A stretch of DNA of 49,253 bases, taken from positions 1 to 49,253 of the forward strand of contig JACOYG010000020.1 of assembly GCA_016181985.1 (NCBI GenBank), read 5' to 3'. The position numbers and the translations under genes are program-made. This DNA comes from Candidatus Nealsonbacteria bacterium. GTDB lineage: Bacteria > Patescibacteriota > Minisyncoccia > Minisyncoccales > MHMH01. Shown in pieces: positions 33,631-49,253 of this stretch. Position 1 is the first letter of the stretch, and every line of letters begins with the position of its first letter. Below the pieces are notes generated by a model. The model had not been told where the DNA came from. It worked only from the letters and a program-made list of their open reading frames with translations, and made no database searches.

Positions 33631-33686
33631 AAATTGTGATAGAAAAAATAGTAAAAAACAGGTCGGCTTACCGGCTATTTAAAAAA

Positions 33687-34370
33687 ATGGCGCTAGTTGT
33701 TCACTTTTTTCGAGGGCTGGCGATATTAAAAGAGGCGGGAAGCTTAAAACCGAAATCAGTATTCGTATCGGATTTGCCCCAAGAACTTGAAAATTTTGAA
33801 GATTTGTCCTGGTTATTCTTCAATAATTTTACCAATGGAGGAATCATCAGAATGTGCTTTAACGAAGCGGCTTATGCATTCAAAACGGTGCGGAAAAATC
33901 AACCCCGCTGTCTGCTGGAAATCGGCAGATATGAGGGAGGTTCAACAATGCTCATCTCTGTGGCAAAATCAAAAGAAGCCAAATTTATCAGTTTGGACAT
34001 AGAAGATAGATGCAATGAAACAATTAAAAAAACTCTCGATAAAAATACTTCCTTAATTATGGGTGATTCAAAAAAATTCATCCCTCCCTGCAAGCTTGAC
34101 TTCATCTTCATTGACGGCGATCATGGTTTTAACGGAGTAAAAGCTGATTTTGAACATTATTTTCCTTATTTAAATAACGGGGCGGATATTTTATTTCATG
34201 ATGCGGTTCGTTCGGGAAAATATATTCTTAACGAGCCGGCCGTCAATTATTTTGTCAAAACGCTTGAAGCTAATCCAAGCTTAAAATTCATAAAAGATGT
34301 TGGAAGCATCAGGCATTTCAAAAAAAATGATGACAATAAAAGGTTCTCATCCAAAAATCCTTCTGATTAA
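33687..34370 (+). CDS. Class I SAM-dependent methyltransferase (Methyltransf_24 / CmcI-TylF-like)
   Basis: LEIGRYEGGSTMLIS, FISLDIEDR, DFIFIDGDHGFNGVKADFE and ILFHD. Track start 33528 overlaps the DUF5989 gene out of frame, so I use ATG 33687. GTG 33636 is also possible. Confidence 0.75.
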   Translation: MALVVHFFRGLAILKEAGSLKPKSVFVSDLPQELENFEDLSWLFFNNFTNGGIIRMCFNEAAYAFKTVRKNQPRCLLEIGRYEGGSTMLISVAKSKEAKFISLDIEDRCNETIKKTLDKNTSLIMGDSKKFIPPCKLDFIFIDGDHGFNGVKADFEHYFPYLNNGADILFHDAVRSGKYILNEPAVNYFVKTLEANPSLKFIKDVGSIRHFKKNDDNKRFSSKNPSD

Positions 34371-35751
34371 TCCTCCCAGCGAATTCAAAACGCCGGTTCT
34401 GCCTTTAGGGTTAGCATCCATCGTCGCTTACCTTAAAGAAAAAAATAATGAAATCGGCGTTTTTGTTATTGACGCATGGGCTGAAAATCTGGAATCTGAA
34501 GAATTAAAAGATAGAATAGCAAAAACAGGAGCTGATATTGCCGGTATTTATATGGTGAGCCCGCGCTACGATCAGGCAAAAAAAACCATCGAAATCTGCC
34601 GCCAAGCTCTGCCCGGATCGCTTATTATAGCCGGAGGTCCCCATCCGTCGGCTATGCCTCGAGAAACCCTGGAAGATATTCCCTATTTGGATGTTTGCGC
34701 CATTGGCGAGGGAGAGGAAATAATGCTGGAACTGGCCAATAACAATCCCTTGTCGGACATTAGGGGCATCTCATACAGAAAAAATGGAAATATTGTCACG
34801 ACTCCCGCCAGAGAGCTTATCAATGACCTGGATAGTCTTCCCATACCCGATCGCGAACTCTTTCCTATCGAAAAATATTGCACTCATCCGCCTTATGGGA
34901 GAAAAAAACCGTACTTTACGATGATTACCTCAAGAGGCTGCCCTTTCCGATGCGCTTATTGCTCAAAAGATGTTTTCAGGCAAAATTACCGGGCAAAATC
35001 TCCCGGCAAAGTGTGCGACGAAATCGAAGAACTAATTTTAAAATACGGAGCCAAAGAAACGCATTTTTATGACGATGACTTCACCCTGGACATGAAAAGG
35101 GCGGAAGAAATCTGCAACGAAATAATAAGGCGAAGGATAAAAATTATTTGGTCGTGCACCACCAGAGTTGATCTGGTAAATGAAAACTTGCTAAAAAAAA
35201 TGAAGGAAGCCGGCTGCTGGCTTATATCTTACGGCGTAGAATCCGGCAATCAAAAAATCTTAGACGCCATCAATAAGGGATTCACCGTAAAACAAATAAT
35301 GTCCGCCTTTGAAATGACGAGAAAAATTGGCATATCAACTGTCGGATTTTTTATGGTAGGACTTCCCGGCGAGACCGAAGAAACAATCAAAGAAACGCTC
35401 GCTTTGTCAAAAAAAATAAAGCCGAATTTTGTAAGCTGGGGGATCTTAGTGGCATATCCTGGCAGCAGTTTCTATAAAGACATCCAAGCCGGCAAATATC
35501 GCGGCAGATTGAGGATTTTAGGCAGAGATAAGGGAGAAGATTTAACCGGAACTTTCTTCGGCAAAGGCAATTATATCGTCTTTGAAGATAGTTTGACTTT
35601 TGAACAATTACAGACAATAATTAAAAAGGCGAACTGGGAATTTTATTTTCGTCCAGCTTATCTTTTGCAGGCCGCAAGCTCTATTCGGTCTTTCTCCGAT
35701 TTGAATTATTACTTAAGAGCGGCCGCCGGACTGATACAGTCAATCATATGA
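34327..35751 (+). CDS. B12-binding domain radical SAM protein (class B), paralogue 5
   Basis: Start at ATG 34327 (MMTIKGSHPKILLINPP), chosen by alignment with the paralogue at 37160. GGPHPS, GEGE, SRGCPFRCAYC, YGVESGNQKIL, GLPGETEET. Confidence 0.85.
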   Translation: MMTIKGSHPKILLINPPSEFKTPVLPLGLASIVAYLKEKNNEIGVFVIDAWAENLESEELKDRIAKTGADIAGIYMVSPRYDQAKKTIEICRQALPGSLIIAGGPHPSAMPRETLEDIPYLDVCAIGEGEEIMLELANNNPLSDIRGISYRKNGNIVTTPARELINDLDSLPIPDRELFPIEKYCTHPPYGRKKPYFTMITSRGCPFRCAYCSKDVFRQNYRAKSPGKVCDEIEELILKYGAKETHFYDDDFTLDMKRAEEICNEIIRRRIKIIWSCTTRVDLVNENLLKKMKEAGCWLISYGVESGNQKILDAINKGFTVKQIMSAFEMTRKIGISTVGFFMVGLPGETEETIKETLALSKKIKPNFVSWGILVAYPGSSFYKDIQAGKYRGRLRILGRDKGEDLTGTFFGKGNYIVFEDSLTFEQLQTIIKKANWEFYFRPAYLLQAASSIRSFSDLNYYLRAAAGLIQSII

Positions 35752-37163
35752 TCTTACTCATTGAACCTCCTCATGTCAGCTTAGGAAATATCAGCAGATT
35801 CTACGGGGCCTTTGGCACAAGCAAGGCCGATTTTGTTTGGCCGCCGCTGGAATTAATGAGCATCGCCGGTTATTTAGATAAATTCCAAATAAAAAATGCT
35901 GTTTATGACGCCGGGGGATTGAAAAAAAATTACGGCGATATTCAGGAATTTATTGAAAAAGAAAAACCGGAGATGATTATTTTTTCCACTTCAACCACCG
36001 CTATTTATTCAGATGTGCTCACGGCCGCCAAAGCGAAAGAAATATCCAAAGATATTATTACAGTAGCCGTGGGAACTTTTGTTATGACCCTTCCTAAAGA
36101 AACCCTGGAATTAAACCGATCAATTGACGTTGTCGTTTACAGCGACGACGAGGAAATAGTCGTGAAAAATTTAATTGAATCTCGCGGTAATTTTTCTCAA
36201 GTAAGAGGAATCTGTTACCGAGCAAAAAACGGCGAAATTATAAAAAATCCGCCCCAGGAGGTAATCAAAAATTTAGATGAGCTTGGCTTCCCCGCCCATG
36301 ATAAAATCGAAAAAGAAATTTACCGCGACGCCATGAATAAAAGGTGGCCCATGACTTTAGTTATGGCCCAGCGGGGATGCGTCAACCATTGTTCGTTTTG
36401 CATCTGCCCCGCTTTATATAAATATCGGGAAAGGAGCGTTGAACATGTGCTTGAAGAATTAAAATGGATCGCAAAACTCGGCTATAAAGAATTCAAATTC
36501 GTTAATTCCGGCATTACTTATAACTTGCCATGGATCAATAAATTGACGGATGAAATGATCAAAGCCAAACTTGATCTTACGTGGATGACCAATGTGAGGG
36601 CCGACAGGCTGAACCAGGAAATACTTGACAAGATGAAAATGGCCGGCTGCCATACCTTAGCCATCGGACTTGAAACGGCCAGCCCGGAAATATTAAAAAA
36701 TGTCGGCAAAAATATTACTATCGAAAAAGCGCGGGATGCCGTGATTATGGCAAAAAAAACCGGCCTTAGAACAATCGTCTACTTTATTTTGGGACTGCCC
36801 GGAGAAACAAAAGAAACCCTGCAAAAAACCATTGATTTTGCCAAATCCGTAGGATCGGATTTCGTGACAATGGGCGTAGCCCAGCCCTTGCCCGGCACTA
36901 AATTTTATAATGACTTGAAAGAAAAGGGCCTCCTTTTAACTGACGATTGGTCAAAATACGACCCGATTAAGCCGCCGGTTTATCAATATCCCGATTTAAC
37001 TTCAAAAGAAATTTTCCTGGCCGCCAGAAAAGGCTATCGCCAATTTTATTTAAAGCCGAGCTATATCTTAAAAAGAATAAGCCAAATACGGTCTTTTAAC
37101 GAACTTGGGGATAATTTTAAGAATTTTTTAGGCTTTATTAAGCGCTACGTTCTGCCTCTATGA
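35748..37163 (+). CDS. B12-binding domain radical SAM protein (class B), paralogue 6 (divergent)
   Basis: 471 aa. MILLIEPP, QRGCVNHCSFC, IGLETASPEIL and GLPGETKET. It lacks the GEGE motif (YSDDEE instead). ATGA overlaps at both ends. Confidence 0.8.
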   Translation: MILLIEPPHVSLGNISRFYGAFGTSKADFVWPPLELMSIAGYLDKFQIKNAVYDAGGLKKNYGDIQEFIEKEKPEMIIFSTSTTAIYSDVLTAAKAKEISKDIITVAVGTFVMTLPKETLELNRSIDVVVYSDDEEIVVKNLIESRGNFSQVRGICYRAKNGEIIKNPPQEVIKNLDELGFPAHDKIEKEIYRDAMNKRWPMTLVMAQRGCVNHCSFCICPALYKYRERSVEHVLEELKWIAKLGYKEFKFVNSGITYNLPWINKLTDEMIKAKLDLTWMTNVRADRLNQEILDKMKMAGCHTLAIGLETASPEILKNVGKNITIEKARDAVIMAKKTGLRTIVYFILGLPGETKETLQKTIDFAKSVGSDFVTMGVAQPLPGTKFYNDLKEKGLLLTDDWSKYDPIKPPVYQYPDLTSKEIFLAARKGYRQFYLKPSYILKRISQIRSFNELGDNFKNFLGFIKRYVLPL

Positions 37164-38563
37164 CAAACAAAAAAATTCTTTTTGTTAATCCTCTTAGCGA
37201 ATTTAAAAATCCGATTATGCCTTTAGGGCTGGCTTCTATTGCCGCCTATCTGAAAAATAAGGAAAAAAATATCGACATTCAAGTTATAGACGCCTGGGCG
37301 GAAAACTTAAGCTTTGAAAATTTAAAAATCAGAGTTTCCAAAACTAAGGCCGATGTCATCGGCATCTATATGCTCAGCCCTCGCTACGACCAAGCAAAAA
37401 AAACCATTGAGGTTTGCAGGCAAGCCCTGCCCAACTCCCTGATCATGGCCGGAGGCCCGCACGCCTCGGCTCTGCCGGTTGAGACATTACAAGAAATTCC
37501 CCAGCTGGATATCGCCGCTGTCGGCGAAGGCGAAATCACTATGCTGGAATTGATTTCCGGCCTTCCTTATTCAAAAATTGACGGCATCGCTTATAGGGAA
37601 AACGGAGAAATAAAAACGACCAAGCCCAGAGACTTTATAAAAAACCTCGATGAACTGCCTTTTCCTAACAGGGATCTTTTCCCGTTGAAAAAATACATCT
37701 CCCCGCCCCCTTACGGCAGAAAAAATCCTTATTTCATTATGATTACCGGCCGCGGCTGCCCTTTCCATTGCGCCTATTGCTGTAAAAATGTTTTCAACGA
37801 CAATTACCGCGCCAGATCTCCTAAGAATGTCTGCGAAGAAATAGAGAACTTGATTGTAAAATACGGCGCCAAGGAAATAATGTTCACCGATGACGATTTT
37901 ACCTTAAATATGAAAAGAGCCGAGGAAATCTGCGACGAAATGATAAAAAGAGGCATAAAAATACGCTGGTCTTGCTTGACGCGGGTTGATTTGGTGACAG
38001 AGCGCCTTTTAAATAAAATGAAAAATGCCGGCTGCTGGCTGATAGCTTACGGACTGGAATCCGGCAATCAGGCAATTTTAGACACGGTTGATAAGGGCAT
38101 TAAAATAAGCCAAATAATCTCCGCCTTTGAGATAACCAGAAAAGCGGGCATCATGATTTACGCCAGCTTTGTCGTCGGCCTGCCGGGCGAAACCAAAGAA
38201 ACCATCAACGATACCTTTAATCTAGTCAAAAAAGTGAAGCCGAATTTTATCAGCGGCACGACTCTGATAGTTTATCCGGGCAGCCGTTTCGCCAAATTAA
38301 TTCAAGAGGGGCATTACAAGGGAAAAACAAGAACTCTGAAAAAAAATGAAGGCATGCCCGGTTTTTCCTATAAGGGAAACTATACCATCTTTGAGGATAA
38401 ATTGACTTACGAGGAATTGAGAGAAGCCGTAAAAATAAACGAAAGAAATTTTTATTTCAGACCGCAATATATCCTTCAAACCCTGAAGGATATTAGGTCT
38501 TTTTCTGACGCTGTCTATTTTTTTAAAGCCGGGTTCGCTGTCATGCGGTCTTTTTTAAAATAA
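37160..38563 (+). CDS. B12-binding domain radical SAM protein (class B), paralogue 7 (close copy of paralogue 5)
   Basis: 467 aa. KILFVNP, GGPHAS, GEGE, GRGCPFHCAYC and YGLESGNQAIL. Long blocks are identical to 34327..35751. Confidence 0.85.
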   Translation: MTNKKILFVNPLSEFKNPIMPLGLASIAAYLKNKEKNIDIQVIDAWAENLSFENLKIRVSKTKADVIGIYMLSPRYDQAKKTIEVCRQALPNSLIMAGGPHASALPVETLQEIPQLDIAAVGEGEITMLELISGLPYSKIDGIAYRENGEIKTTKPRDFIKNLDELPFPNRDLFPLKKYISPPPYGRKNPYFIMITGRGCPFHCAYCCKNVFNDNYRARSPKNVCEEIENLIVKYGAKEIMFTDDDFTLNMKRAEEICDEMIKRGIKIRWSCLTRVDLVTERLLNKMKNAGCWLIAYGLESGNQAILDTVDKGIKISQIISAFEITRKAGIMIYASFVVGLPGETKETINDTFNLVKKVKPNFISGTTLIVYPGSRFAKLIQEGHYKGKTRTLKKNEGMPGFSYKGNYTIFEDKLTYEELREAVKINERNFYFRPQYILQTLKDIRSFSDAVYFFKAGFAVMRSFLK

Positions 38564-39501
38564 TTAACGAAAATCAATCCAAGCAAGCCCGAAATGAAAA
38601 GGGTGCCCGTCAAAAATACTCTGGCTAAAATAACCGAGCTGGCCGCTGAAACCGTAGAGTATCCGAATAAACCAAAAAGATAAGCTACGCCTACTTCAAT
38701 TACGCCTATCCCCCCGGGGATAAAGGTCGCGAAAGTAGCGGCTCCCGTAACCATGGAAATCGAGGCGGAAATTAAAAATGGCGCAGGAAAAACTGAATTA
38801 TACATCAGATAAGACGATGATATCTCGAAAAACCAGCAAAGAACGGTGAGAGGCGTTAAAAATAAATACGCCTTTTTATTTTTTAACAACGGCAGGGCAT
38901 CGTAAAAAGCGTCCGTCTCTTTTTCCGCGAATCTTATAATTCTGAAGAATTTTAACATTCTCAAAGTTATTCTTTTTGAAATAAGGGCCGCGACCATCAA
39001 AAACAGCGCTAAAAAAATCACGGCAAGCGCTCCTCTGAAAAAACGCAGGAGCAAATCATTTTGGATGCCGGAGTTTAATATGTAAACAATGGAGGCCGTT
39101 AAAACAAGAGTAAAAATAGCCAATTCAAAAAATCTGTCCAAAACAATTACGGAAAATCCGCGGCCAACCGGTATTTTAAAATACTTATTAAATAAAACCG
39201 GGGTTATCGCCTCGCCTGATTTTAAGGGAGTGATGCTGCCCATCAGGGAATTGAACAAATAAATTGGCAGGAATTGCCTGTATTTTATTTTATTTTCAAA
39301 AATCCTGACCATTAAAAACCATTTCAGCGACCGCGTTGCGATCAATAATATGTAAACAAAAACGGCCGAAACTATGTAATATAATTTCGCTTCAGAAAAC
39401 GCTTTAACGATTTCCGACGGCCCCACCCGGTAAATCAGGAAGAAGAGAAGACCGAGGCCGATTAAAAAAATAATTAATTTGGCGATTTTTGATAAGCTCA
39501 T
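38515..39501 (-). CDS. Flippase-like membrane protein (LPG-synthase TM / UPF0104-type domain)
   Basis: Start set at ATG 39501 (MSLSKIAKLII), an ATGA overlap with the stop of 39498..40850. About 8 TM helices. The N-terminus ...LFFLIYRVGPSEIVKAFSEAKLYYIVSAVFVYILLIATRSLKW is typical of this family. The 3' end overlaps the convergent gene 37160..38563 by 49 nt. Confidence 0.65.
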   Translation of the reverse strand: MSLSKIAKLIIFLIGLGLLFFLIYRVGPSEIVKAFSEAKLYYIVSAVFVYILLIATRSLKWFLMVRIFENKIKYRQFLPIYLFNSLMGSITPLKSGEAITPVLFNKYFKIPVGRGFSVIVLDRFFELAIFTLVLTASIVYILNSGIQNDLLLRFFRGALAVIFLALFLMVAALISKRITLRMLKFFRIIRFAEKETDAFYDALPLLKNKKAYLFLTPLTVLCWFFEISSSYLMYNSVFPAPFLISASISMVTGAATFATFIPGGIGVIEVGVAYLFGLFGYSTVSAASSVILARVFLTGTLFISGLLGLIFVNYFKKDRMTANPALKK

Positions 39502-40850
39502 TTCAAATATTTTACGAATCTCAAAATGTCCATCAACTGTCCGAAATTTCTGATGCTTAAAATAGTCCTCAGCCAAAGAGACGGCCTTAAATAAAATTTT
39601 CTATAAATATATTTTTGGGCCAAAACCAATTCCCGCGAAGTAAGATATTCGGTCCGCAGGGCGGGCATCTGGCCGGCGCAGTAACCATCGTATCCGGAAA
39701 AAGAATAATCCTCAACGAGCAATCCCTTTTCTTTTATTTCGTCGTAAAGTTTTGTGCCGGGATATGGAGTCAAAATAACAAACTGGGCTCGGTGCGGGTT
39801 TATTTTTTTAGCGGCATCGAGAGTTTGTTTCACCGTTTCCATTGATTCTTCGGGCATGCCCAGCATAAAGGAAGCGGTAACTTTAATGCCGTTTTTTTGG
39901 CAAAAATCAACCGCCTCCATCGCTTTGGTTAAGGTAGTTCCTTTATTAGCTTCTTTCAGTAGTCCTTCGGAACCGCATTCTATGCCGAACATCACATTCC
40001 AACAGCCGGCTTTTTTCATCATTTTGATTGTTTCTTCATCAAGCGTATCAGCCCTGCCGTTGCAGGACCACTCAAACTTCAATCCTTTTTCAATAATCAT
40101 TTTGCAAAGACTCTTAACTCTCTCCCTGTCTGCGGTAAAAGTTTCATCAAAAAAATAAATACTCCTTATGCCTAAATTTAACAGATGCTTTATCTCTTCT
40201 AAAATTTTCGAGGCGCTTTTAAATTTCCAAATTTTACCGTATCCCCTGTCCACCGTAGCTCCTCCGATAATGCAAAAATTACAGCGATTCGGACAGCCAA
40301 CGCTGGTAATCAAGGAAGCAAACGGTTTTTTTCTCGTAAAACTCAAAGAAAAATATTTTTTAACGGGCAATAAATCGTAGGCCGGTAAGGGATGATTCTC
40401 AATTTCCGCTATTCCTGGAAATCCCAATAAACCGGGAATTTCCAAAAGCGGCTCCCTGCTTACCAAATAATCTATTTTCGGAAAATTTTGCCTCACTCGC
40501 TCGGGCATGGCCGGAGAAATGTGAGAATCCAATAAAATAGTTTTAATCTGATCATCAGCTTCTTTGGCGATTTTGGCGATTTGCGCGTCAGCGGTGAAAG
40601 TAGTCGGTGAGATTGTAAAAATAACGGCTTGGGGCTTAAATTGCCTGATTTCAGTTTCAATATCTTTGAAATTTCTGTCCAGGGCATTGGCGTCTAAAAT
40701 TTTAACTTCGGCGTATTGCCTCAAAACTCCCGCTAAATAAGCGAGCTCGATCGGCGGAAATATTGAAACGGTCGCCAAATTGGCGCAGCGCATTTCCCTC
40801 ACTACCGCGTGGCCGTTAAATCTCGGCGGATTAATAAGCAAGATACGCAT
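39498..40850 (-). CDS. B12-binding domain radical SAM protein (class B), paralogue 8
   Basis: 450 aa. MRILLINPP, SVGCPNRCNFC, FGIECGSEGLL, LGMPEESMET and TPYPGTKLY. No GEGE motif. Confidence 0.8.
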   Translation of the reverse strand: MRILLINPPRFNGHAVVREMRCANLATVSIFPPIELAYLAGVLRQYAEVKILDANALDRNFKDIETEIRQFKPQAVIFTISPTTFTADAQIAKIAKEADDQIKTILLDSHISPAMPERVRQNFPKIDYLVSREPLLEIPGLLGFPGIAEIENHPLPAYDLLPVKKYFSLSFTRKKPFASLITSVGCPNRCNFCIIGGATVDRGYGKIWKFKSASKILEEIKHLLNLGIRSIYFFDETFTADRERVKSLCKMIIEKGLKFEWSCNGRADTLDEETIKMMKKAGCWNVMFGIECGSEGLLKEANKGTTLTKAMEAVDFCQKNGIKVTASFMLGMPEESMETVKQTLDAAKKINPHRAQFVILTPYPGTKLYDEIKEKGLLVEDYSFSGYDGYCAGQMPALRTEYLTSRELVLAQKYIYRKFYLRPSLWLRTILSIRNFGQLMDILRFVKYLK

Positions 40851-40863
40851 ATTAATAAAAAAA

Positions 40864-42255
40864 TTAAATAGAAATCTTCTTAATTACGGCAAAAACTCCC
40901 CTTCTTTCGCTCCAGAGTAATTTTAAAAATTCCCAAAACCTCCTGTTTTTAAAATAAAACAAACAATATCCCATTACCTGAAGTTTCTCCATCTCTTTTC
41001 TGGACAATGTCGTAAGTTCCAAGCTGGAGCCGATGGTTTTATTGAAGTCGGCCCAATCCGAAGAAATTATCCGATAATTTCCTTCTCCCTTAAGGGCCAT
41101 TTCATATATTCTTGTGCCCGGATACGGAACCATAATACCGAAGGCAATGCTGGAAGTATTTAATTTAGCGGCGAATCTTACGGTATCTAAAGCGGTTTCT
41201 CTGGTCTCATTGGGATGTCCGATGATGAAAAAACTGCTGGTTTTAAGTCCCGCCTTTTTAGCTAAAAAAACGCTTTCCTCGGCTTTTTTCAGCGTTATGC
41301 CTTTGCCCGTTTTCTTGAGAATTTCTTCGTTGCCCGATTCCACTCCGAATCCTATTCTGGAACAACCGGCCGCTTTAAGTTTTTGAAGCAATGGCTCATC
41401 TACCAAATCCACTCTGGTGGTTACGATTAATTTTACCTTCCGATTAAGATTACTTTCAATCAACCCCGACAATAAAGCATCCGTTTGTTCTTTGTCTATG
41501 CCGAAACTTTCGTCATGAATATTGAATATATTGGCTCCGTACCGTTCTACGCCTAATTTAATCTCTTGCAAAATCATTTTGGGGCTGCGCTTCCTGATCA
41601 TACGGCCGGAAATTCTCATGCAGAAATTGCAATCAAAGGGACAGCCTCGAACGGTTAATAATGGATATTCTTCGCTCAAGGGAAACATATCCCATGCCGG
41701 AAAAGGCAGAGAATCCAAATCTGCTAAAAAATAGCGCTGCCCGTTAAAAACAATCCGGCCCGAAGGCGAGCGGAAAACCAGGCCGGCCACTTTGGAAAAA
41801 TCTCCTTTCTGAAAAATAGCATTAACCGTTTCTAAAAAAGTAATTTCTCCTTCGCCGGCGACTAACATATCAAATTCAGGGAACTGTTCTAGGGTTGCTT
41901 CGGGCAGAGCGGTAGCATGCGGACCGCCTAAAACAATTAAAACGCCCGGGAAAAATTCCTTTGCCAAGCGAGCCACCCGAGCGGCTTGCTTCACTTCGTG
42001 GGTAAAAGCGGTTATGCCTATTATGCCGGGATTATATTGCTTTAACCGCTGCTTTAATCCTTCCATGTTTATATCTTCAAATTTGGCGTCTATTGCCCGG
42101 CATTCAAAACCGCTCTGCCTTAAATAAGCGCTGATATAAGCCAGCCCTATGTGAGGATAGTCGGTATGATCGTGGGGATCGCGCCTGATAAAAGGCGGGG
42201 GATTTATCAATAAAATCTCCTCCCTTATTTTTGTTCCGTTTTCGTGGTGAGCCAT
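40864..42255 (-). CDS. B12-binding domain radical SAM protein (class B), paralogue 9
   Basis: 463 aa. ILLINPPP, GGPHAT, GEGE, VRGCPFDCNFC, FGVESGNEEIL and VPYPGTRIY. Confidence 0.85.
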   Translation of the reverse strand: MAHHENGTKIREEILLINPPPFIRRDPHDHTDYPHIGLAYISAYLRQSGFECRAIDAKFEDINMEGLKQRLKQYNPGIIGITAFTHEVKQAARVARLAKEFFPGVLIVLGGPHATALPEATLEQFPEFDMLVAGEGEITFLETVNAIFQKGDFSKVAGLVFRSPSGRIVFNGQRYFLADLDSLPFPAWDMFPLSEEYPLLTVRGCPFDCNFCMRISGRMIRKRSPKMILQEIKLGVERYGANIFNIHDESFGIDKEQTDALLSGLIESNLNRKVKLIVTTRVDLVDEPLLQKLKAAGCSRIGFGVESGNEEILKKTGKGITLKKAEESVFLAKKAGLKTSSFFIIGHPNETRETALDTVRFAAKLNTSSIAFGIMVPYPGTRIYEMALKGEGNYRIISSDWADFNKTIGSSLELTTLSRKEMEKLQVMGYCLFYFKNRRFWEFLKLLWSERRGVFAVIKKISI

Positions 42256-43649
42256 TTTTTTATGGTTTTGCGATGCTTAAAAACTGTTCTTAAAAGATTG
42301 AAGGGGTGTCTTAAAAAATAAGCGAATTTGGCTCTCTTCACATAACTATAAATTTGCTCATAGGTCAAATCCGGCTGCTCAAAAACCGGCATAAAAATAC
42401 AGGGATCCAGGGGCGGGTAAGACCTGTCCCTTTCGTAATACTTTGCCCAAGAAAAATTTTGAGGCAGGGTTCCCATTTCTTTGGCCATCGTTTCCAATTC
42501 CGTGCCGGGGTAAATTACGGATATCCCCTGGGTGGTGCCCTCAACTCCTAAATTATAATACAAATATCGGCTTAAAAAAACCGTCTTTTTAATATCCTCG
42601 TAAGTTTCTCCCGGCAGACCATGCATAAAAAAAGCCTTGAGGCCGATGCCCGCTTTTTTGATAATTTTTGCGGCCTCAATCGCCTGCTCCACGGTTATGC
42701 TTTTTTTAATATTTTTCAAAATCCTGTCGCTGCCCGATTCAACGCCAAGGTCAATAAATTCGCAGCCGGCTTTTTTCATGGCCATGATAATTTCCTCATC
42801 AACGGTATTGGCCCTCACTTCGCATTCCCAGACAAAATTAAGCTTTCTCTTTACGATTTCATCGCATATCGCCAAAACCCTTTTTTTATCCATAGTCAGA
42901 ACATCATCAAAAAATCTTATTCCCTCAATAAAGGAGTACTCTTTCAAGATGAGCTCGATTTCATCAACCACATTCTTGGGCGACCTGTGCCTGATTTGAT
43001 GCCCCCATTGTTCCGAAGTTGAGCAATAAACGCACCAATAGGGACATCCGCGGCTGGTCATCACGTTTAATGTCCTTTTATTTGATAAAGTAGTGGTCTT
43101 GTCGTATTTTTCTATGGGCAAAAGGTCCCTGGCCGGCAAGGGCAAACCGTCTAAATCATGGATCGGCAATTCCGGAGGATTATGAACAATCATTCCATCT
43201 TTATTGCGGAAAGAGATGCCTTTAACGCCTGAAAAATCTTTCCCCGCTTCAATGCTTTTAACTAAATTCAAAAAAGAAATTTCTCCTTCACCTCTCACGA
43301 TAACGTCAATTTCTGGAATATTTTCCAGGGTATCTTGGGGAGTAAGGGTCGGATGGGGGCCGCCGGCCGCAATGGGAGCTTTCGGGAATTCTTTTTTGAT
43401 TAATCTTGCCAATTCAAAGGCCGAAAATCTGATCTGCGTGCCAAAAGATATGCCGATTAAATCCGGCCCCTCTTTTTTCAGCAATTCAATAATGTTTTCA
43501 TTGGAATAATGGTTAGCCATGCTGTCAATTAAAACGATATCCTTAAAGCCGTTTTGCCTTAAAAACGCGGCCAGCCAAGCAATGCCGAGAGGCGGCATGC
43601 TTTGTTTTGTCTGGTAAATATTCGGGGGAAAAATTAAAACAATTTTCAT
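42225..43649 (-). CDS. B12-binding domain radical SAM protein (class B), paralogue 10
   Basis: Track start 43676 is the ATG at the centre of palindrome copy D. I use ATG 43649 (MKIVLIFPP), consistent with the paralogue N-termini. GGPHPT, GEGE, SRGCPYWCVYC, LGVESGSDRIL. Confidence 0.85.
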   Translation of the reverse strand: MKIVLIFPPNIYQTKQSMPPLGIAWLAAFLRQNGFKDIVLIDSMANHYSNENIIELLKKEGPDLIGISFGTQIRFSAFELARLIKKEFPKAPIAAGGPHPTLTPQDTLENIPEIDVIVRGEGEISFLNLVKSIEAGKDFSGVKGISFRNKDGMIVHNPPELPIHDLDGLPLPARDLLPIEKYDKTTTLSNKRTLNVMTSRGCPYWCVYCSTSEQWGHQIRHRSPKNVVDEIELILKEYSFIEGIRFFDDVLTMDKKRVLAICDEIVKRKLNFVWECEVRANTVDEEIIMAMKKAGCEFIDLGVESGSDRILKNIKKSITVEQAIEAAKIIKKAGIGLKAFFMHGLPGETYEDIKKTVFLSRYLYYNLGVEGTTQGISVIYPGTELETMAKEMGTLPQNFSWAKYYERDRSYPPLDPCIFMPVFEQPDLTYEQIYSYVKRAKFAYFLRHPFNLLRTVFKHRKTIKKWLTTKTEQK

Positions 43650-43659
43650 CTTGTATCTA

Positions 43660-43691
43660 TATCCGTTCCTTGCCATGGCAAGGAACGGATA
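43660..43691. repeat. Cistron-junction palindrome, copy D (type I): perfect 32-nt dyad TATCCGTTCCTTGCCATGGCAAGGAACGGATA
   Basis: Read directly. It lies between the stop at 43706 and the start at 43649 of two radical SAM genes. It differs from copy A only at one symmetric position pair (T..A versus G..C). Confidence 0.9.
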
Positions 43692-43705
43692 GTATTCTAA
43701 CTTTA

Positions 43706-45091
43706 TTATATTGAAAATATAGCCAGAGCTCCCCTGATATATCTTTTTAAATCTTCAAAGCTTCTGACTGAAATCAATTTCGGTATAATATATCCCCAAC
43801 GGAAGTAAAATTTTATGAAAGCGTATTTTTTCATCTCTTGCAATTCGTTTATACTTTTATATCCCGAAGGCAAAAATGTCGCAAAATAACCGGTGAGCTT
43901 ATCGTACGATTCATCTAAAATTTTCCCCCATTTTCCTTCTTTGATCTCTTTATAAATAACCGTGCCGGGATAGGGCGTCAAGATATTAAACTTAACATAA
44001 TCCGGGTTTAAAGCGCAAAGTATTTTGAGTGATTTTCTGACTTTTTCCGGAGTTTCTTTGGGCAAGCCCAAAATTAAGTTTGCCCTGATTTCAATTCCGG
44101 CTTCTCTCGTCCATTTAAAAGCGGCGGATATTTTTTCTAATGTTATTTTTTTATTGATAGCGTCCAATATTTCCTGATCCAAGCTTTCTATCCCAAAAAA
44201 AATGCACCAGCAGCCGGCTTTTTTCATCTTTTTCAGCAGTTCGCCGTCTACGGTATCAACCCGGCATTCGCAAGACCAGGTGATATCTATTTTTTCAGTT
44301 AAAATTTGACTGCAAAAATCATCAATCCATGCCTTATTGATCCCCCAAACGTCATCCCAAAAATTCACCTCCTTTATGCCGTAATCTTTGATCAGATGCT
44401 TGATTTCGCCGATAACATTGCCGACCGATCTCGACCTGTAGAGCCGCGTCCAAAGCGTTTCTACGTCGCAAAAAGTGCAATTAAACGGACAGCCGCGGCT
44501 CACCATCATCGTAGTCATGGGCAATCTTTTATATTGGTTAGGCGAGGGCTTGTATTTGCCGACAGGAACCAGGTGCCTGGCAGGCAAAGGCAGAGAATCA
44601 AGATTTTTTATCAATTCCCTGGCGGGATTTATTATTGCTTTTCCGTTTTGCTTAAAACCGACGCCTTTGACCATTTCCGGATTATTTATCGATCTCAATA
44701 ATTCAACGGCGCTGATTTCCCCTTCCCCTACTACCACATAATCAACCTGTCTATTGCTTAAAACCTCCATGGGTTTTGTTGTCACATGGGGGCCTCCAAA
44801 AATGACGGGGACGTCAAGATTATCCTTTATTTCTTCAGCTAATTCAAGGGCTTTGCGATAATTTGACGTGTTGCAATAAATGCCGATAATATCGGGATTC
44901 CCCGCTTCTTTTATATCCCAAGTTTGAATTTGAGTGTCGAAAATCTTAACGCGATACCCTTCTTTCTCCAAAGCCGCGCCTATGTAGAGCAAACCGAGCG
45001 GCGGCAAAGAACTGCCTATCTTCTCTATCCCCCGGCCATATCTCTCTTTCATGGAGAATGGCGGCATAATCAGTAAGATATCTTTAATCAT
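43706..45091 (-). CDS. B12-binding domain radical SAM protein (class B), paralogue 11
   Basis: 461 aa. ILLIMPP, GGPHVT, GEGE, SRGCPFNCTFC, FGIESLDQEIL and TPYPGTVIY. Confidence 0.85.
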   Translation of the reverse strand: MIKDILLIMPPFSMKERYGRGIEKIGSSLPPLGLLYIGAALEKEGYRVKIFDTQIQTWDIKEAGNPDIIGIYCNTSNYRKALELAEEIKDNLDVPVIFGGPHVTTKPMEVLSNRQVDYVVVGEGEISAVELLRSINNPEMVKGVGFKQNGKAIINPARELIKNLDSLPLPARHLVPVGKYKPSPNQYKRLPMTTMMVSRGCPFNCTFCDVETLWTRLYRSRSVGNVIGEIKHLIKDYGIKEVNFWDDVWGINKAWIDDFCSQILTEKIDITWSCECRVDTVDGELLKKMKKAGCWCIFFGIESLDQEILDAINKKITLEKISAAFKWTREAGIEIRANLILGLPKETPEKVRKSLKILCALNPDYVKFNILTPYPGTVIYKEIKEGKWGKILDESYDKLTGYFATFLPSGYKSINELQEMKKYAFIKFYFRWGYIIPKLISVRSFEDLKRYIRGALAIFSI

Positions 45092-45780
45092 TTTTTCTTG
45101 CCCAAGTAATAAAAACTAAAAGCGATATTTTCTGCAGGGCCGTATCTGTAAAATAAATAATCTAGAAACTTTAGCGGGAAAGTTAGCGCCGTAAAAATTA
45201 TCAGCCATAATTGATACGTCTTGTCAGACCCGAAACAAAAAATCATAGCCAGCCATTGATTGAATACGGAAAGAAAACCGGAGGTCGGGCCGTGCCGGAT
45301 GCCGCTTTTCAATTTTAAAAATCCGGCGCTTTCCATGGTCGCCTCTAGCCCGTTTTTGGTAAAACGATAATAATCATCGGGAGAGGAATGATACCCGGCT
45401 ACGAATGGAACGGCAATATAAATCAATCCTCCCGGCTTCAGCGCTCTAGCCATCTCAAGCAAAGCCCTGTCCGGATTATTGAGGTGTTCCAAAACCTGAT
45501 CGCAAATTACGGCATCTGCTTCATTCTCGGCAAAAGGCAAATTATAAATATCCCCCACGATATCCACATTATGATAAGCATGGATATCCATATTGATGAC
45601 ATCTTTCCTGATTCTTTGGGTACCCGAACCTAAATTGACAATCTTGCCGCTTATCCCCTTGATGGCTTCTTCTGGTCCCAAACCGACTTTCAATGCCCCA
45701 AAAAGCCAACGGGCGGTTTTGAATAAAAAAACATGTTCCTTGAGAAGATTTTTAAAATTATATATGATATTATCTTTCAT
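45088..45780 (-). CDS. Class I SAM-dependent methyltransferase (Methyltransf_11-like) with a hydrophobic C-terminus
   Basis: 230 aa. IVNLGSGTQ, ADAVICDQVLEHLNNPDRALLEMARALKPGGLIYI. ATGA overlap with the downstream radical SAM gene. Confidence 0.8.
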   Translation of the reverse strand: MKDNIIYNFKNLLKEHVFLFKTARWLFGALKVGLGPEEAIKGISGKIVNLGSGTQRIRKDVINMDIHAYHNVDIVGDIYNLPFAENEADAVICDQVLEHLNNPDRALLEMARALKPGGLIYIAVPFVAGYHSSPDDYYRFTKNGLEATMESAGFLKLKSGIRHGPTSGFLSVFNQWLAMIFCFGSDKTYQLWLIIFTALTFPLKFLDYLFYRYGPAENIAFSFYYLGKKK

Positions 45781-47470
45781 AAATTATGAATTCCCCGATT
45801 TCGGCAGCTTTTTTTAAAAACGGGTACTGATCGAGCTGCCATTTAGGATTGGATTCTTTATCCCAAATTAAATAATTTACTTCGTATTTTTGCAGCATTT
45901 CATTGAATAAATCGGGGGTTGCCGCGGCAAAAGATTCTTGATATCTCCGGACTAAATCCAAAACGACTCCGTCCGGTATATTTTCATATTCTCCAAAAAG
46001 ATCGCGGTAATATATTCCATAGATTGCCCAGGATATGTTTTCTTTGTCCCCCAAAAAGACATCTTTTGCCTGCGCTTCAGCGACACCATCTAATCTGTAG
46101 TATAAAAAGAAGGTATTTATCAGGCGTTCGGTCGTAGCGGACAAAGAATATTTCGCCGAATGGTGATAGAAAACATTCAAGGATGTGTGAGTAACGATTA
46201 AATTGGCGATCGCGTCGTTGCTGAAAACAACCTCTTCTTTTTTGGCGTTTTTATTAAACCAATCCATTAAGGGGCCGTATTTTTGAATTTTAACGATCGT
46301 CTCTTTGCTGGCGGAATAAGAAATGCTCTGAACAAAAATACCCAGGGAAATGCTGATGACAATAAAAAAAATAGCCAGCGCCTTTTTGGCAAATTGCCAT
46401 TTTCTTAAAGAAAGAACGGAAAAAAGGATGATTAAGAGAATGATCAGGGCTAAGGGTTTGTGATAATACCAATGATAATGAGAAGGACTCAGGGCCTTGC
46501 CGGTGATTAATTGCTGATTTAAAACCACAAAAGGCGCGATAACCAAAGCCAGGGCAAAATAATACCGTTCCTTCCATTTTCTGGGAAATAAAATCAAGAA
46601 AAGAACAAGAAGCATGGGAGGCAAAATTCCCATAGATAATTCGCGGCCCCCCATCAAACCGGCCCTTGCCCCCACATCGCCAAAGGTCGGATAAGCAGCT
46701 GCCCGATAGAGATTAATAAAATAAGGAATGGCAATTAAAATTGCCCCCAAAAGAACGACGGCAATCCTTTTAATGTCCTGCCATTTTTTTTGACAAAGGA
46801 ATATCAGAATAAGAATACCGCAAAAAGCATATAAAAAAGTCCAGGTGTAAAGAAAATCGTAGAAAGACAATCCTAATATTAAAGCGCTTAAAATTCCCCA
46901 GCGCCATTGCTTCCTTTCTATAAAAAGCCAAAAAAACAATAAAAACCCGAAAAAGAAAATCCAAGTCAGGGCCGGGTTAACCGGGCGGGTGAGCAATAAA
47001 TAGTATGGCTTTAGTGTCGCCCCGCGGTTAAAAATAGAGATAGCCAAAAGAAAAACCGATGGGATAGACAGAGAGATTATTTTTTCCTTGGTAAAGAAAA
47101 ACAAGAAAGCGTAAATTATTAAAAAAAGCAGGGAAGTAAAAAACAATCGGGAAAATAAAATTGTATCATTAATGTTCAAAGAAAAAAGTTGGCCCGAATA
47201 AGCCACGATTATTGTTCCGAGCGGCTGAAAAAGATAGGGATCGCTTTTGCCGTCTTTAAAATAAGTTGAACTGAAAGCGGGGTGCCCATCCTGAACCTCT
47301 TTAACGCGCGACATCCAAGCGCTTTCGTCATCGGAAGCTCCCATTAGCCCGATTCCTTGGTAGGAATCGCCTAAATCCCAACGCGAATAAATCTGGGGAT
47401 AAGCAACGACGATGGCTGTCGCTAAAGCAAGAAAAATTGCCCACTTATGATTTTTAAAAATTTGCGCCAT
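45770..47470 (-). CDS. Polytopic membrane protein with a C-terminal soluble domain, GT-C-like candidate
   Basis: 566 aa. The first loop after TM1 has an acidic motif (GASDDESAW), there are about 11 TM helices, and a ~170-aa hydrophilic C-terminal domain. Assigned by architecture only. Confidence 0.45.
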   Translation of the reverse strand: MAQIFKNHKWAIFLALATAIVVAYPQIYSRWDLGDSYQGIGLMGASDDESAWMSRVKEVQDGHPAFSSTYFKDGKSDPYLFQPLGTIIVAYSGQLFSLNINDTILFSRLFFTSLLFLIIYAFLFFFTKEKIISLSIPSVFLLAISIFNRGATLKPYYLLLTRPVNPALTWIFFFGFLLFFWLFIERKQWRWGILSALILGLSFYDFLYTWTFLYAFCGILILIFLCQKKWQDIKRIAVVLLGAILIAIPYFINLYRAAAYPTFGDVGARAGLMGGRELSMGILPPMLLVLFLILFPRKWKERYYFALALVIAPFVVLNQQLITGKALSPSHYHWYYHKPLALIILLIILFSVLSLRKWQFAKKALAIFFIVISISLGIFVQSISYSASKETIVKIQKYGPLMDWFNKNAKKEEVVFSNDAIANLIVTHTSLNVFYHHSAKYSLSATTERLINTFFLYYRLDGVAEAQAKDVFLGDKENISWAIYGIYYRDLFGEYENIPDGVVLDLVRRYQESFAAATPDLFNEMLQKYEVNYLIWDKESNPKWQLDQYPFLKKAAEIGEFIIYER

Positions 47471-48879
47471 TAGATTTTAATCAAATCGCAAAAAGATTTC
47501 ACCGACCTTTCCACGTCATAATATGTTCTGATCTTTAAAAGATACTTTAATAAATAAGCGGGTCTAAGGTAAAAACCCTTATTAGCTTCTTTAACAAGTT
47601 TTGTTTGCTTGGCTGGCGGAAAATTTTTAAGGTTTAAATTTCCGCTGGCTTCTCTGGCGTCGGAAGAAACCGCAACTCTCTTCATATACCAAAATCTGTC
47701 CGGCAAGGCATTGTTTTCAACGGCCCATTTATAAAGTTCGGTTCCGGGATAAGCCGCTGTTGTCCCAAAAGTGGCTAAATCCAAACCAAGTTTTTGCGAA
47801 AATTTTATCGTCTCCCTGGCATCGTCTTCGGTTTCTGTCGGATTGCCAATCATAAAATAACCCATGGCTTCAATCCCTGATTTTTTACAAAGAGAGATCG
47901 CCCGCTCTACCTGTTCAAGGGTGATTCCTTTGCGCATAACATCCAAAATTCGCTGGCTGCCCGATTCTATGCCGAATGAAATCATATAACATCCGCTTTT
48001 TTTCATGGTTTTGAACAGTTCTTCGTCAACTAAGTCAACCCTGGTATTGCAAGTCCATGTTATTCGAATATTTCTTTTATCGATTTCGGAGCAAATTTCT
48101 CGAACCCAATTCTTATTTAATGTAAGATCGCTGTCTTTGAACATGAATTGTTTTATTCCGTATTTTCGATGATTATTTTCTATTTCATCAACAATATTTT
48201 CAGGAGTTCTTAATCTTAATATCTTGCCGTGAGTCAAATGAGCATCGCAAAAAATACAACCGTAAGGGCATCCTCGCGATGCCATTAAAGACGCCAAGGG
48301 AAGAGATTTGGCGAAATAACTGTCATATTTCTTGATATCTAACAATGCCAAATCAGGAAAAGGAAGATCGTCTAACTCCCGTATTAGCTGAGGCGGGCTG
48401 TTAATTATTATTTTGTTCCCATTTTTATAAATCAATCCGTTAATTTCTTCTAGGGGCTGGCCGGCAGCTAATTTATAAAAATTCTCCTCTCCTTCGCCAT
48501 AAAACAAAAAATCTATATCTTCGCTAAAATTGAATATTTCGTCTTTAGTCGAACTGATGTGCGGACCGCCAACGGCAATTTTTAAAGAGGGGCAGCGTTT
48601 TTTTAATTCGGCGGCGGCCTCTAAAACGGCTTTTGCTTGGCAAGACATTGCGCTAAACCCCACTAATGACGGATTTTCTTTTAGGATAATTTCCACAAGT
48701 TCATCTAAGGTATACCCATTAACAAAGGAATCGATGATCTTCACGGCAATCCCATTTTTTTGCAGAAAAGCTGCTATATAAAGGATGCCCAGCAAGGGAT
48801 AGGCGAAATTTTTACCCTTTCCAAAAATTATCGAAGGAGAAACCAAAACAACCGTATTTACTGGCTTTATGCCGGTCAT
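47470..48879 (-). CDS. B12-binding domain radical SAM protein (class B), paralogue 12
   Basis: 469 aa. GGPHIS, GEGE, SRGCPYGCIFC, FGIESGSQRIL and AAYPGTELY. ATGA overlap with the upstream GT2 and a TAATG overlap with the downstream gene. Confidence 0.85.
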   Translation of the reverse strand: MTGIKPVNTVVLVSPSIIFGKGKNFAYPLLGILYIAAFLQKNGIAVKIIDSFVNGYTLDELVEIILKENPSLVGFSAMSCQAKAVLEAAAELKKRCPSLKIAVGGPHISSTKDEIFNFSEDIDFLFYGEGEENFYKLAAGQPLEEINGLIYKNGNKIIINSPPQLIRELDDLPFPDLALLDIKKYDSYFAKSLPLASLMASRGCPYGCIFCDAHLTHGKILRLRTPENIVDEIENNHRKYGIKQFMFKDSDLTLNKNWVREICSEIDKRNIRITWTCNTRVDLVDEELFKTMKKSGCYMISFGIESGSQRILDVMRKGITLEQVERAISLCKKSGIEAMGYFMIGNPTETEDDARETIKFSQKLGLDLATFGTTAAYPGTELYKWAVENNALPDRFWYMKRVAVSSDAREASGNLNLKNFPPAKQTKLVKEANKGFYLRPAYLLKYLLKIRTYYDVERSVKSFCDLIKI

Positions 48880-49253
48880 AAATTTATTTTCTCTTTAATG
48901 GAATATGAGGTCTTCTCGCGCGGTTCATAGTAAATTCTAATTAAAATTTCAGCCAAAAGACCCATCAATATAAACTGAATGCCCGTAATGATGAAAAATA
49001 TGGTAAGTAACGGCAATTGAGTCGTGGAAATTGGTATATTAAGAATAAATTTGTATACTAAAGTTGCCAAGCCCCCTAAAAATCCCAAAAATAACAACAG
49101 AAGACCGGCCTGGCCGAAAAAATGGATTGGTCTCGTTAAATATGCCATTAAAAATTTAACCGTAAGCAAATCAAGAAATCCCTTAAAGATTCTAGCGGGC
49201 CCATATTTAGACTTGCCGTATTTTCTCGGATAATGCTTAACTTTTATCTCTGA
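48876..49253 (-). CDS. GT2 polyprenyl-phosphate glycosyltransferase (GtrB/ArnC-like), C-terminal part only (5' end lies outside the window)
   Basis: The frame stays open to the window edge (SEIKVKHYPRKYGKSKYGPARIFKGFLDLLTVKF...). Two C-terminal TM helices and LMGLLAEILIRIYYEPREK are typical of this family. The track TTG start at 49169 is internal. Confidence 0.75.
   Translation of the reverse strand, partial: SEIKVKHYPRKYGKSKYGPARIFKGFLDLLTVKFLMAYLTRPIHFFGQAGLLLLFLGFLGGLATLVYKFILNIPISTTQLPLLTIFFIITGIQFILMGLLAEILIRIYYEPREKTSYSIKEKINL

Follow-up and report, generated by a model that had tools for sequence, protein, structure and literature searches.

The window analysed here is the whole of contig JACOYG010000020.1, 49,253 nt from a Candidatus Nealsonbacteria bacterium, an uncultivated and ultra-small member of the Patescibacteria (candidate phyla radiation), and all coordinates are counted from its first letter. 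The G+C content is about 0.41 along the entire contig and there is no compositional island. Our subject is an array at 34327-48879 in which eight genes each encode a B12-binding domain and a radical S-adenosylmethionine (SAM) domain, as seen in the open reading frame (ORF) list, the translations and Pfam. They lie in two convergent operons together with a family 2 glycosyltransferase (GT2), a large membrane protein (MEM), a methyltransferase (MT) and a flippase-like protein (F).

Three of the eight genes are on the plus strand. A1 (34327-35751; a longer ORF opens at 34297) has the canonical GGPH and GEGE motifs and the cluster motif CPFRCAYC. A2 (35748-37163) belongs to an HpnJ-like subclass of B12-type radical SAM enzymes in which VGTF and YSDDEE stand in place of GGPH and GEGE. 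A3 (37160-38563) is canonical and is the final gene of its operon. The minus-strand operon is read in the order GT2, B5, MEM, MT, B4, B3, B2, B1, F. Its first gene (48876-49253) is cut by the contig end, leaving the C-terminal 125 aa of an ArnC/GtrB-type GT2 with two transmembrane helices. B5 (47470-48879), a canonical B12-type radical SAM gene, is set between the GT2 and MEM (45770-47470), a protein of 566 aa with the predicted structure of a GT-C-fold membrane glycosyltransferase, from a family that has no Pfam model. MT (45088-45780) is a 230-aa class I SAM methyltransferase with a hydrophobic C-terminal region. B4 (43706-45091) and B3 (42225-43649), both canonical, are core members of the array; B2 (40864-42255) is canonical as well, and B1 (39498-40850; 450 aa) is a B12-type radical SAM protein without GG, GEGE and a hairpin of about 20 aa. 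The operon ends with F (38515-39501), a polytopic membrane protein of the MprF-flippase-domain family (PF03706 / TIGR00374).

The genes are packed tightly. ATGA-type overlaps join A1/A2, A2/A3, GT2/B5, MT/B4 and B1/F, and the remaining minus-strand overlaps are 1 nt (B5/MEM), 11 nt (MEM/MT) and 31 nt (B3/B2). Only two gaps are left, 13 nt between B2 and B1 and 56 nt between B4 and B3 (43650-43705), the latter occupied by a 32-nt palindrome. The initial annotation had described three plus-strand genes with ATGA overlaps facing a minus-strand operon of this order, tight junctions and one longer gap holding the palindrome; the ORF list and translations bear out the layout and the coordinates agree. 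Two gene starts need correction. The mechanical ORF list opens B3 at 43676, within the palindrome, and the start that matches the paralogues is the ATG at 43649 (MKIVLIFPP), which on this comparison is most likely the real one. The start of F is most likely 39501, giving 328 aa and the same call as in the closely related locus L005, rather than the TTG at 39576 that opens a 353-aa ORF.

The two operons meet without an intergenic terminator. The convergent 3' ends of A3 and F overlap by 49 nt (38515-38563), as they do in L005 (49 nt; 14859-14907), and in the distant relative L160 the overlap of the convergent operons is 80 nt (12195-12274). A 10-bp hairpin (38469-38493) lies within the 3' end of A3. 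Scanning the window for Rfam families and tRNAs gave nothing, and a promoter/terminator consensus scan of it was uninformative in this AT-rich DNA.

The radical SAM enzymes

All eight proteins exceed the Pfam cut-offs for both PF02310 (B12-binding) and PF04055 (Radical_SAM); the weakest PF02310 scores, 44 bits for A2 and 44.6 for B1, compare with a gathering score of 32.1. The CxxxCxxC motif of the SAM-binding 4Fe-4S cluster is intact in every one of them, and in 12/12 B12-type copies of the contig. Six of the eight keep GG and GEGE in the B12-binding domain. GEGE is missing from A2 and B1, and our motif check here repeats what the initial annotation had noticed for the genes at 35748 and 39498. 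Pairwise identity among the eight is just 28-38%, A1 and A3 excepted at 62%.

None of the radical SAM proteins of the array meets any NCBIfam equivalog cut-off. HpnJ (TIGR03471) is the top-scoring named family for seven of the eight and for X4 (28558-29955, plus strand), a B12-type gene in the same operon as A1-A3 and, of all radical SAM enzymes on the contig, the one closest to HpnJ; the scores are 171.6-237.8 bits for the eight and 343.9 for X4, against a cut-off of 577.6. For B2 the BchE model outscores HpnJ. BchE (TIGR02026) scores of 143-233 bits stay under the equivalog cut-off of 481, and there are no chlorophyll genes in the window; AprD4 (NF033070) reaches 70-125 bits against a cut-off of 500. 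Weaker matches include the lipid-biosynthesis B12/radical SAM family TIGR04072 and HpnR. Radical SAM families of ribosomally synthesized and post-translationally modified peptides (RiPPs) appear as secondary matches far under their cut-offs, ApyD at 117-178 bits and rSAM_ocin_1 at 60-121 bits.

The nearest solved structure is AprD4. It is the closest sequence in the PDB for B3 (6fd2, E 6.7e-25) and the best fold match of an AlphaFold model of B4 (pLDDT 89.5, a model confidence score), with a template-modelling (TM) score of 0.78-0.80, E 8e-28 and about 20% identity. The next matches are the cobalamin enzymes TsrM, MgmA, CysS, OxsB and TokK, and across these six solved class B enzymes the query-normalised TM-score is 0.68-0.78; among the eight, this comparison was made with the B4 model alone. 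AprD4 is the radical SAM 1,2-diol dehydratase of apramycin biosynthesis. The array enzymes resemble it in being compact (about 460 aa), with an N-terminal Rossmann domain and a radical SAM barrel, and AprD4 has a sugar substrate. They differ in that the window has no aminoglycoside genes and that six of the eight keep GG and GEGE. The class B methylases (TokK, CysS, MgmA, TsrM, GenK, HpnP/HpnR) show the same order of PF02310 followed by PF04055 and methylate unactivated carbons, some of them iteratively; however, their substrates are antibiotics, peptides, proteins and hopanoids, whereas we propose carrier-linked surface sugars here.

The two exceptional copies do not look damaged. We took the authentic annotated HpnJ of Mycetohabitans rhizoxinica, to which the copies on the contig are 25-33% identical, as the reference for the motif alignment. 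At the canonical GGPH and GEGE positions it has VGAKVA and REEFDY, and replacements of this type are common to X4 (VGSH / KGEYEY), A2 and a Lawsonia homologue. Since A2 shares its replacements with HpnJ, its missing GEGE marks a distinct HpnJ-like subclass and not damage. B1 is without the entire GG/GEGE segment, and its deletions are identical in orthologues of 93% and 72% identity, so that the gap reads, on these alignments, as a conserved deletion. For the six canonical copies we consider cobalamin-dependent C-methylation or alkylation the most likely activity, while A2 and B1, with X4, may carry out non-methylation chemistry such as rearrangement or dehydration. The enzymes have no strong hydrophobic segments, with one borderline window in B1.

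Purifying selection acts on all ten genes measured. The ratio of nonsynonymous to synonymous substitution rates (dN/dS) was computed against the L005 orthologues, which are 82-94% identical; A1 was left out since the L005 sequence stops within A2. For the seven radical SAM genes covered, the ratio is 0.055-0.094, with 0.074 for A2, 0.065 for A3, 0.067 for B1, 0.092 for B2, 0.055 for B3 and 0.094 for B5, and 0.082-0.118 for MEM, MT and F. Intact cluster motifs, low dN/dS and the conserved deletions of B1 together argue that there is no decaying copy among them. The synonymous rate dS against L005 is 0.34-0.49 for A2, A3, F, B1 and B2 and 0.73-1.17 for B3, B4, MT, MEM and B5; this step suggests a recombination breakpoint near the B3/B2 boundary and a mosaic history of the array.

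The paralogues are also old. B4, B3, B1, A2, A1/A3 and X4 have orthologues 59-75% identical in relatives whose MEM is only about 51-53% identical, and six of the eight can therefore be regarded as stable orthogroups that are better conserved than the GT-C protein itself. The A1 orthologues are 68% identical in L160 and L161, those of B3 72-75% in L001, L008 and L160, and those of X4 67-70% in L160 and L161; B4 is 70-72% identical in relatives and 55-59% in L076, from an Aenigmarchaeota archaeon, and L077. The orthologue of F is 90% identical in L005 and 47% in L160. B5 and B2 have been seen only in the closest relatives, B2 in L005 and L006. From species-representative genomes it had seemed that large arrays and the B1 and A1-A3 orthologues were confined to the closest relatives. 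This was overturned by L160, L161 and a database search with B1 that gave about 50 clusters at 60-73% identity, nearly all of 431-462 aa, and archaeal homologues at 44-48%. Judged by sequence, then, the paralogues form separate, old orthogroups, A2 with its HpnJ-type replacements and B1 with its conserved deletions, which supports the subfunctionalisation suggested in the initial annotation.

Partner proteins and conserved linkage

The truncated GT2 can be judged from L005, where the full-length orthologue aligns end to end with ArnC (9e-56) and GtrB (2.6e-48). This identifies it as a polyprenyl-phosphate glycosyltransferase, the function that had been suggested from the fragment. It scores under the ArnC equivalog cut-off (216 against 529 bits), so no sugar is assigned, and it has no detectable similarity to HpnI. 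MT falls in Methyltransf_11, which supports its earlier call as a SAM methyltransferase, and comes after MEM in many Patescibacteria loci. F passes the cut-off of the TIGR00374 'flippase-like domain' model with 101 bits against 43, in line with its earlier description; it has multiple hydrophobic segments and weak NCBIfam matches to HpnL and to a GlcN-phosphatidylglycerol flippase.

MEM (100% identical to the NCBI protein with locus tag HYT20_01195) has no Pfam, NCBIfam or PDB sequence match, the PDB having been searched with a MEM profile. Its AlphaFold model, built from a 49-sequence alignment, has a mean pLDDT of 92 and a pTM, the predicted TM-score, of 0.90. The best matches among solved structures are all of the GT-C class, namely AftA, PglB, DPY19, STT3 and ArnT (E 6.6e-7 to 1e-3, TM-score 0.45-0.57), which agrees with the GT-C-like character first proposed for this protein. 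The first external loop is where GT-C enzymes bear their catalytic acidic residues. MEM has an invariant E58 and a D61 that is more than 90% conserved in the same alignment, both in the loop that follows its first transmembrane helix. On the predicted structure we regard MEM as a GT-C glycosyltransferase with E58 and D61 as putative catalytic residues. At E up to 1e-3 the family numbers 2213 representative clusters in a set of 1.84 billion representatives. A comparison with hhalign found no relationship between it and the PMT_2 GT-C protein that the contig also encodes (probability 0.7%).

The genes stay linked in relatives rather than being scattered. In the closest ones, L005, L006 and L007, MEM is 84-86% identical and the core order GT2-B5-MEM-MT-B4-B3-... 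is kept. The more distant L160, with a MEM 51% identical, repeats the convergent layout: one arm reads GT2-MEM-B4(71%)-B1(67%)-F(47%), and the facing arm reads A2(66%)-A1(68%)-A1/A3(59%)-MT24(58%)-X4(70%)-GT2(64%)-epimerase-SIS-GHMP kinase. B3 (73%) lies a few genes upstream, and seven genes of B12 type fall within 21 kb. In L161, orthologues of B1, A3, A1, X4 and A2 accompany an ADP-heptose pathway, a GT9, a PMT_2 GT-C, a GT2 and an EamA-like small protein, while L001 and L008 retain only MEM(-MT)-B4-B3 at 70-75% identity. The GT2 followed by MEM, and often by MT, is the common core in most of the roughly 50 Patescibacteria loci with a MEM homologue. Upstream of the GT2, L005 encodes an SMR/EamA-like 125-aa protein, a nitroreductase and a 535-aa protein with a weak pectate-lyase-like match (947-3578). 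A nitroreductase gene is found between GT2 and MEM in Zambryskibacteria locus L003 as well.

B4 also has archaeal homologues, 49-59% identical, in Aenigmarchaeota, Woesearchaeota and Nanoarchaeota. The one in L076, from Aenigmarchaeota (59%, BLASTP), lies between a PF03706 protein and a methyltransferase with a PMT_2 GT-C; a GT2 is just upstream and a second B12-type gene further downstream. By its gene content this DPANN archaeon has the same module of flippase-like protein, radical SAM enzyme, methyltransferase and GT-C. A PF03706 gene adjoins a radical SAM gene in L082 and L090 too. Such PF03706 genes were detected with a small hidden Markov model, single-sequence phmmer with F having missed them.

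Arrays of this general kind are not confined to relatives of the present one. For background we used metagenome loci found by scanning with generic patterns from a B4 alignment; their radical SAM genes are 28-42% identical and fall outside the B4 orthogroup. Among 43 long loci, at least two B12-type radical SAM genes occur in 20, at least four in 5 and a GT2 in 18. These background arrays are common, yet they are not one-to-one orthologous to the array described here.

A related module is found on plasmid 1 of the cultured pathogen Lawsonia intracellularis (L159; NC_008012.1, 8091-25515), a 27-kb plasmid. It carries a GT2, two DUF2304 genes, an SIS gene, an HpnJ-like radical SAM gene whose product is 35% identical to X4, and five class I methyltransferase genes, one of them between the two radical SAM genes of the module. 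There are also a GT2, an NTP-transferase/HAD gene (43%), a GHMP kinase and a DUF2142 gene.

The remainder of the contig

The eight class B radical SAM genes claimed for 34327-48879 stand as far as their domains and CxxxCxxC motifs are concerned. Their delimitation does not: the contig has twelve B12-type radical SAM genes, and the region was drawn too narrowly and cut arbitrarily. By Pfam the further four are at 1934-3418, 3539-5044, 6208-7578 and the position of X4, and two SPASM radical SAM genes are at 8368-9324 and 27417-28568. Pfam also finds two GT4, three further GT2, methyltransferases, a carbamoyltransferase and a GDSL protein. The plus-strand genes from 20824 to 38563 overlap or lie no more than 82 nt apart, and for this reason we consider A1-A3 the last three genes of a 17-gene operon that opens with heptose biosynthesis. 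That nucleotide-heptose pathway (20824-25428, plus strand) is complete and consists of an NTP-transferase+HAD protein, an epimerase, a GHMP kinase, an SIS isomerase and a transaldolase. It is of the GDP-heptose type and has its own transaldolase, presumably for the supply of sedoheptulose 7-phosphate. The relatives L001 and L161 use the ADP-heptose type, with a PfkB kinase, a cytidylyltransferase-like+HAD protein and a GT9. Heptose genes recur beside the module in L001, L160, L161 and L159, and transaldolase and SIS genes adjoin MEM in L038 and L044.

A second candidate three-component set lies at 17747-20827. Its 685-aa PMT_2 GT-C gene (17747-19804, minus strand) is divergent from a gene for a 222-aa GT2 (19845-20513), followed by a 111-aa membrane ORF (20492-20827) whose position matches that of the DUF2304 genes of the Lawsonia plasmid, which come there after a GT2 that is 39% identical. 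A trio of carbamoyltransferase, SxtJ-like small membrane protein and GDSL protein at 29962-33450 recurs directly upstream of GT2-MT-MEM in the Kaiserbacteria locus L026, and a carbamoyltransferase is near MEM also in L012 and L030. A 63-aa ORF on the minus strand (13652-13843) has a hydrophobic core and Cys-rich ends (CKC...CKCC). Two large proteins of the contig, of 559 aa (11477-13156) and 328 aa (16735-17721), have no Pfam or NCBIfam match, and neither do the proteins of 507 and 687 aa that flank MEM in L003 (8485-10008, 11737-13800). Such unmatched large proteins of these glycan loci may be further uncharacterised membrane glycosyltransferases.

The perfect palindrome between B4 and B3, TATCCGTTCCTTGCCATGGCAAGGAACGGATA (43660-43691, no strand), forms as RNA a 14-bp hairpin of -23.5 kcal/mol (z = -5.7) with no T-run behind it. 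It belongs to a family with six matches on the contig against 0 expected. Another complete copy, at 12-43, differs by a T-to-G / A-to-C exchange that is compensated and preserves the hairpin, and two half-copies, at 656-674 and 26405-26423, both run on into GCTTCAATT. The palindrome is 32/32 identical in L005 (9730-9761) and L006 despite a dS of 0.7-0.9 in the flanking genes. It is absent from L007, where the B4 stop stands directly before the B3 ATG, and because the two genes are joined there it has the appearance of an insertion of about 45 nt. It could be a repetitive extragenic palindromic (REP) or miniature inverted-repeat transposable element (MITE)-like element, or an RNA-stabilising hairpin. 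Adjoining two of the copies, on the minus strand at 48-629, is the gene of a 193-aa protein with a PaaX_M (Cas2-like) domain.

A proposed pathway and its rivals

We believe, with moderate confidence, that the region is the core of a surface-glycan locus which combines three-component extracytoplasmic glycosylation with a multi-step radical tailoring stage. On the cytoplasmic side of the membrane, the ArnC/GtrB-type GT2 would attach a sugar, possibly a heptose produced by this locus, to polyprenyl phosphate. The carrier-linked sugar would then be tailored by the methyltransferase and by a set of radical SAM enzymes that are distinct, non-redundant and cytoplasmic. We place the action of the radical enzymes before translocation because they depend on a reducing cytoplasm and show no strong hydrophobic segments. 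F, with its MprF flippase domain, would move the product across the membrane or present it to the enzymes, and MEM would transfer it to an acceptor outside the cell.

Parts of this pathway have precedents. ArnD deformylates a carrier-linked sugar. Three-component systems can take auxiliary enzymes that change the identity of the sugar, such as the epimerase in GT136 systems (PMC11127046). For both HpnJ and calditol synthase, ring contraction of a lipid-linked sugar has been proposed (PMC13459092). Like the array, the characterised three-component systems (GtrA/GtrB/Gtr*, ArnC/ArnEF/ArnT and GT136 pentofuranose) have a GT-C and a polyprenyl-phosphate GT2 that ends in a transmembrane hairpin, and they include a translocation step, which is putative in the array. 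They differ in that the flippase candidate here is a PF03706 protein and not GtrA, SMR or MATE, and that the GT-C comes from a family without a Pfam model. We know of no three-component system with radical SAM enzymes, and our literature search brought up none. The hopanoid side-chain module hpnI-hpnJ-hpnK-hpnL turns bacteriohopanetetrol glucosamine into a cyclitol ether. Its authentic locus in M. rhizoxinica reads hpnI (a glycosyltransferase), hpnJ (radical SAM), hpnK and then a PF03706 protein. Like the array, it groups a radical SAM enzyme of the B12-domain type with a glycosyltransferase and a membrane protein of PF03706, side by side, and A2 and X4 carry the same GG/GEGE replacement as HpnJ. 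However, the present array has 8-12 such enzymes and not one, a GT-C is present, there is no HpnK and the GT2 is not HpnI. Calditol synthase (Cds) of Sulfolobus, likewise of the radical SAM type, has been proposed to make a carbocycle from a hexose head group linked to a lipid (PMC13459092), but it is a single enzyme acting on an archaeal tetraether lipid. All of the components come from known superfamilies; as far as we found, there is no description of their combination, of the GT-C family or of an array on this scale. Our literature search found no description of radical SAM arrays in glycan loci of the candidate phyla radiation (CPR) or DPANN, and the full text of the paper on a closed Nealsonbacteria genome mentions neither radical SAM nor cobalamin.

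Several observations weigh against this pathway. Radical SAM genes lie within 10 kb in only about 10 of the roughly 50 MEM loci; since most GT2-MEM loci have none, the radical enzymes count as accessories to a module that is itself widespread, and only neighbourhood ties them to this GT2/GT-C pair. Even the close relative L007 is without B2 and F in the stretch examined, where an X4-like copy is found. One statistic counts in favour: of the MEM loci with radical SAM genes 4/7 also have a PF03706 gene, against 1/24 of those without (Fisher p=0.005), but this is a test on few loci that are phylogenetically related and not independent. To our knowledge PF03706 proteins act on phospholipid or glycolipid head groups, not on polyprenyl-phosphate sugars, and we know of no characterised three-component glycosylation system that has this type of flippase. 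The SMR/EamA-like 125-aa protein upstream of the GT2 in relatives, beyond the end of this contig, could be the real, ArnE/F-type flippase rather than F. With no equivalog cut-off reached, no reaction is assignable to any of the radical enzymes. Their use of cobalamin is uncertain, because Patescibacteria are not known to make it and the nearest structure, AprD4, works without it as far as we know.

The main rival follows from the heptose pathway being in the same operon as A1-A3. The radical SAM enzymes may tailor a soluble nucleotide sugar, most likely GDP- or ADP-heptose, before transfer, and supply C-methyl, deoxy or rearranged heptoses to ordinary glycosyltransferases, with the GT2, the flippase and the GT-C as mere neighbours. 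That A1-A3 and X4 share one plus-strand operon headed by heptose genes counts for this and against our pathway. Heptose genes are beside radical SAM genes in L001 (ADP-heptose type with GT9), L160, L161, L096 and the Lawsonia plasmid as well, and AprD4, the closest structure, acts on a soluble sugar. But B5, B4, B3, B2 and B1 sit inside the GT2-MEM-MT...F operon and not the heptose operon, the archaeal L076 has the flippase-like, radical SAM, methyltransferase and GT-C genes adjacent with no heptose genes listed, and the HpnJ precedent is for a lipid-linked substrate (PMC13459092). We consider this rival rather unlikely. A lipid substrate is less probable still. Scavenged lipids or the polyprenol carrier could be methylated, cyclised or cross-linked, or a glycolipid head group turned into a cyclitol, with F flipping the finished lipid. 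HpnJ is the best NCBIfam similarity, TIGR04072 and HpnR are weaker ones, F weakly matches HpnL and the GlcN-phosphatidylglycerol flippase, and the hpn locus has the same trio of glycosyltransferase, radical SAM and PF03706 genes. One preprint describes CPR bacteria as putative symbionts unable to synthesise membrane lipids (bioRxiv 10.1101/465690), and on that description lipid remodelling would make sense for them. Against this, every score falls far short of its family cut-off (for HpnJ, 170-238 bits where 577.6 is required), the GT2 belongs to the polyprenyl-phosphate type, and the surrounding genes are glycan-related throughout. Pfam scans of the window found none of hpnI, hpnK and squalene-hopene cyclase, and the window has no other lipid-synthesis genes.

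Two other explanations are rejected. The secondary matches to ApyD and rSAM_ocin_1 might suggest that the array matures a ribosomal peptide by multiple C-methylations, like the polytheonamide-type proteusins. Those matches are far below their cut-offs, and the junctions, which overlap or span at most 13 nt apart from the palindrome-filled gap, leave no room for a precursor gene. The small ORFs in the larger gaps of the window resemble membrane proteins and not precursors, and scanning the window with Pfam revealed neither a protease nor a cyclase nor a peptide exporter. RiPP maturation is on these grounds very improbable. Barely credible is the idea that the genes are redundant or decaying duplicates without separate functions. 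The 62% identity of A1 and A3 and the loss of B2 and F from L007 could be cited for it, but every Fe-S motif is intact, dN/dS is low in all seven copies measured, the remaining pairs are highly diverged, the orthogroups persist across relatives and the B1 deletions are conserved.

A stronger version of the proposed pathway would make the array a radical SAM assembly line of CPR and DPANN, in which up to a dozen distinct enzymes turn a heptose or hexose carried on polyprenyl phosphate into a unit that is heavily C-alkylated or carbocyclic (cyclitol-like). The unit would be translocated by an MprF-type protein and installed on the surface by the new GT-C, in a manner specific to episymbionts and dependent on scavenged cobalamin. 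Taken as a whole, this is speculative and we think it unlikely.

The known class B enzymes work on antibiotics, peptides, cofactors and hopanoids, and radical SAM chemistry on surface glycans is almost unexplored. The new GT-C family, with its approximately 2200 representative clusters and no Pfam model, is testable material; the orthogroups B4, B3, B1, A2 and X4 are specific enzymes open to expression and assay, and the module on the Lawsonia intracellularis plasmid is a possible experimentally tractable relative. The recurrent pairing of PF03706 with HpnJ-like radical SAM enzymes may bear on the role of HpnL. CPR and DPANN organisms have tiny genomes and surfaces that mediate attachment to the host, and such a genome outlay implies strong selection. 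Up to twelve conserved enzymes tied to lipid-carrier glycosylation suggest a class of C-methylated or rearranged sugars that is chemically unseen.

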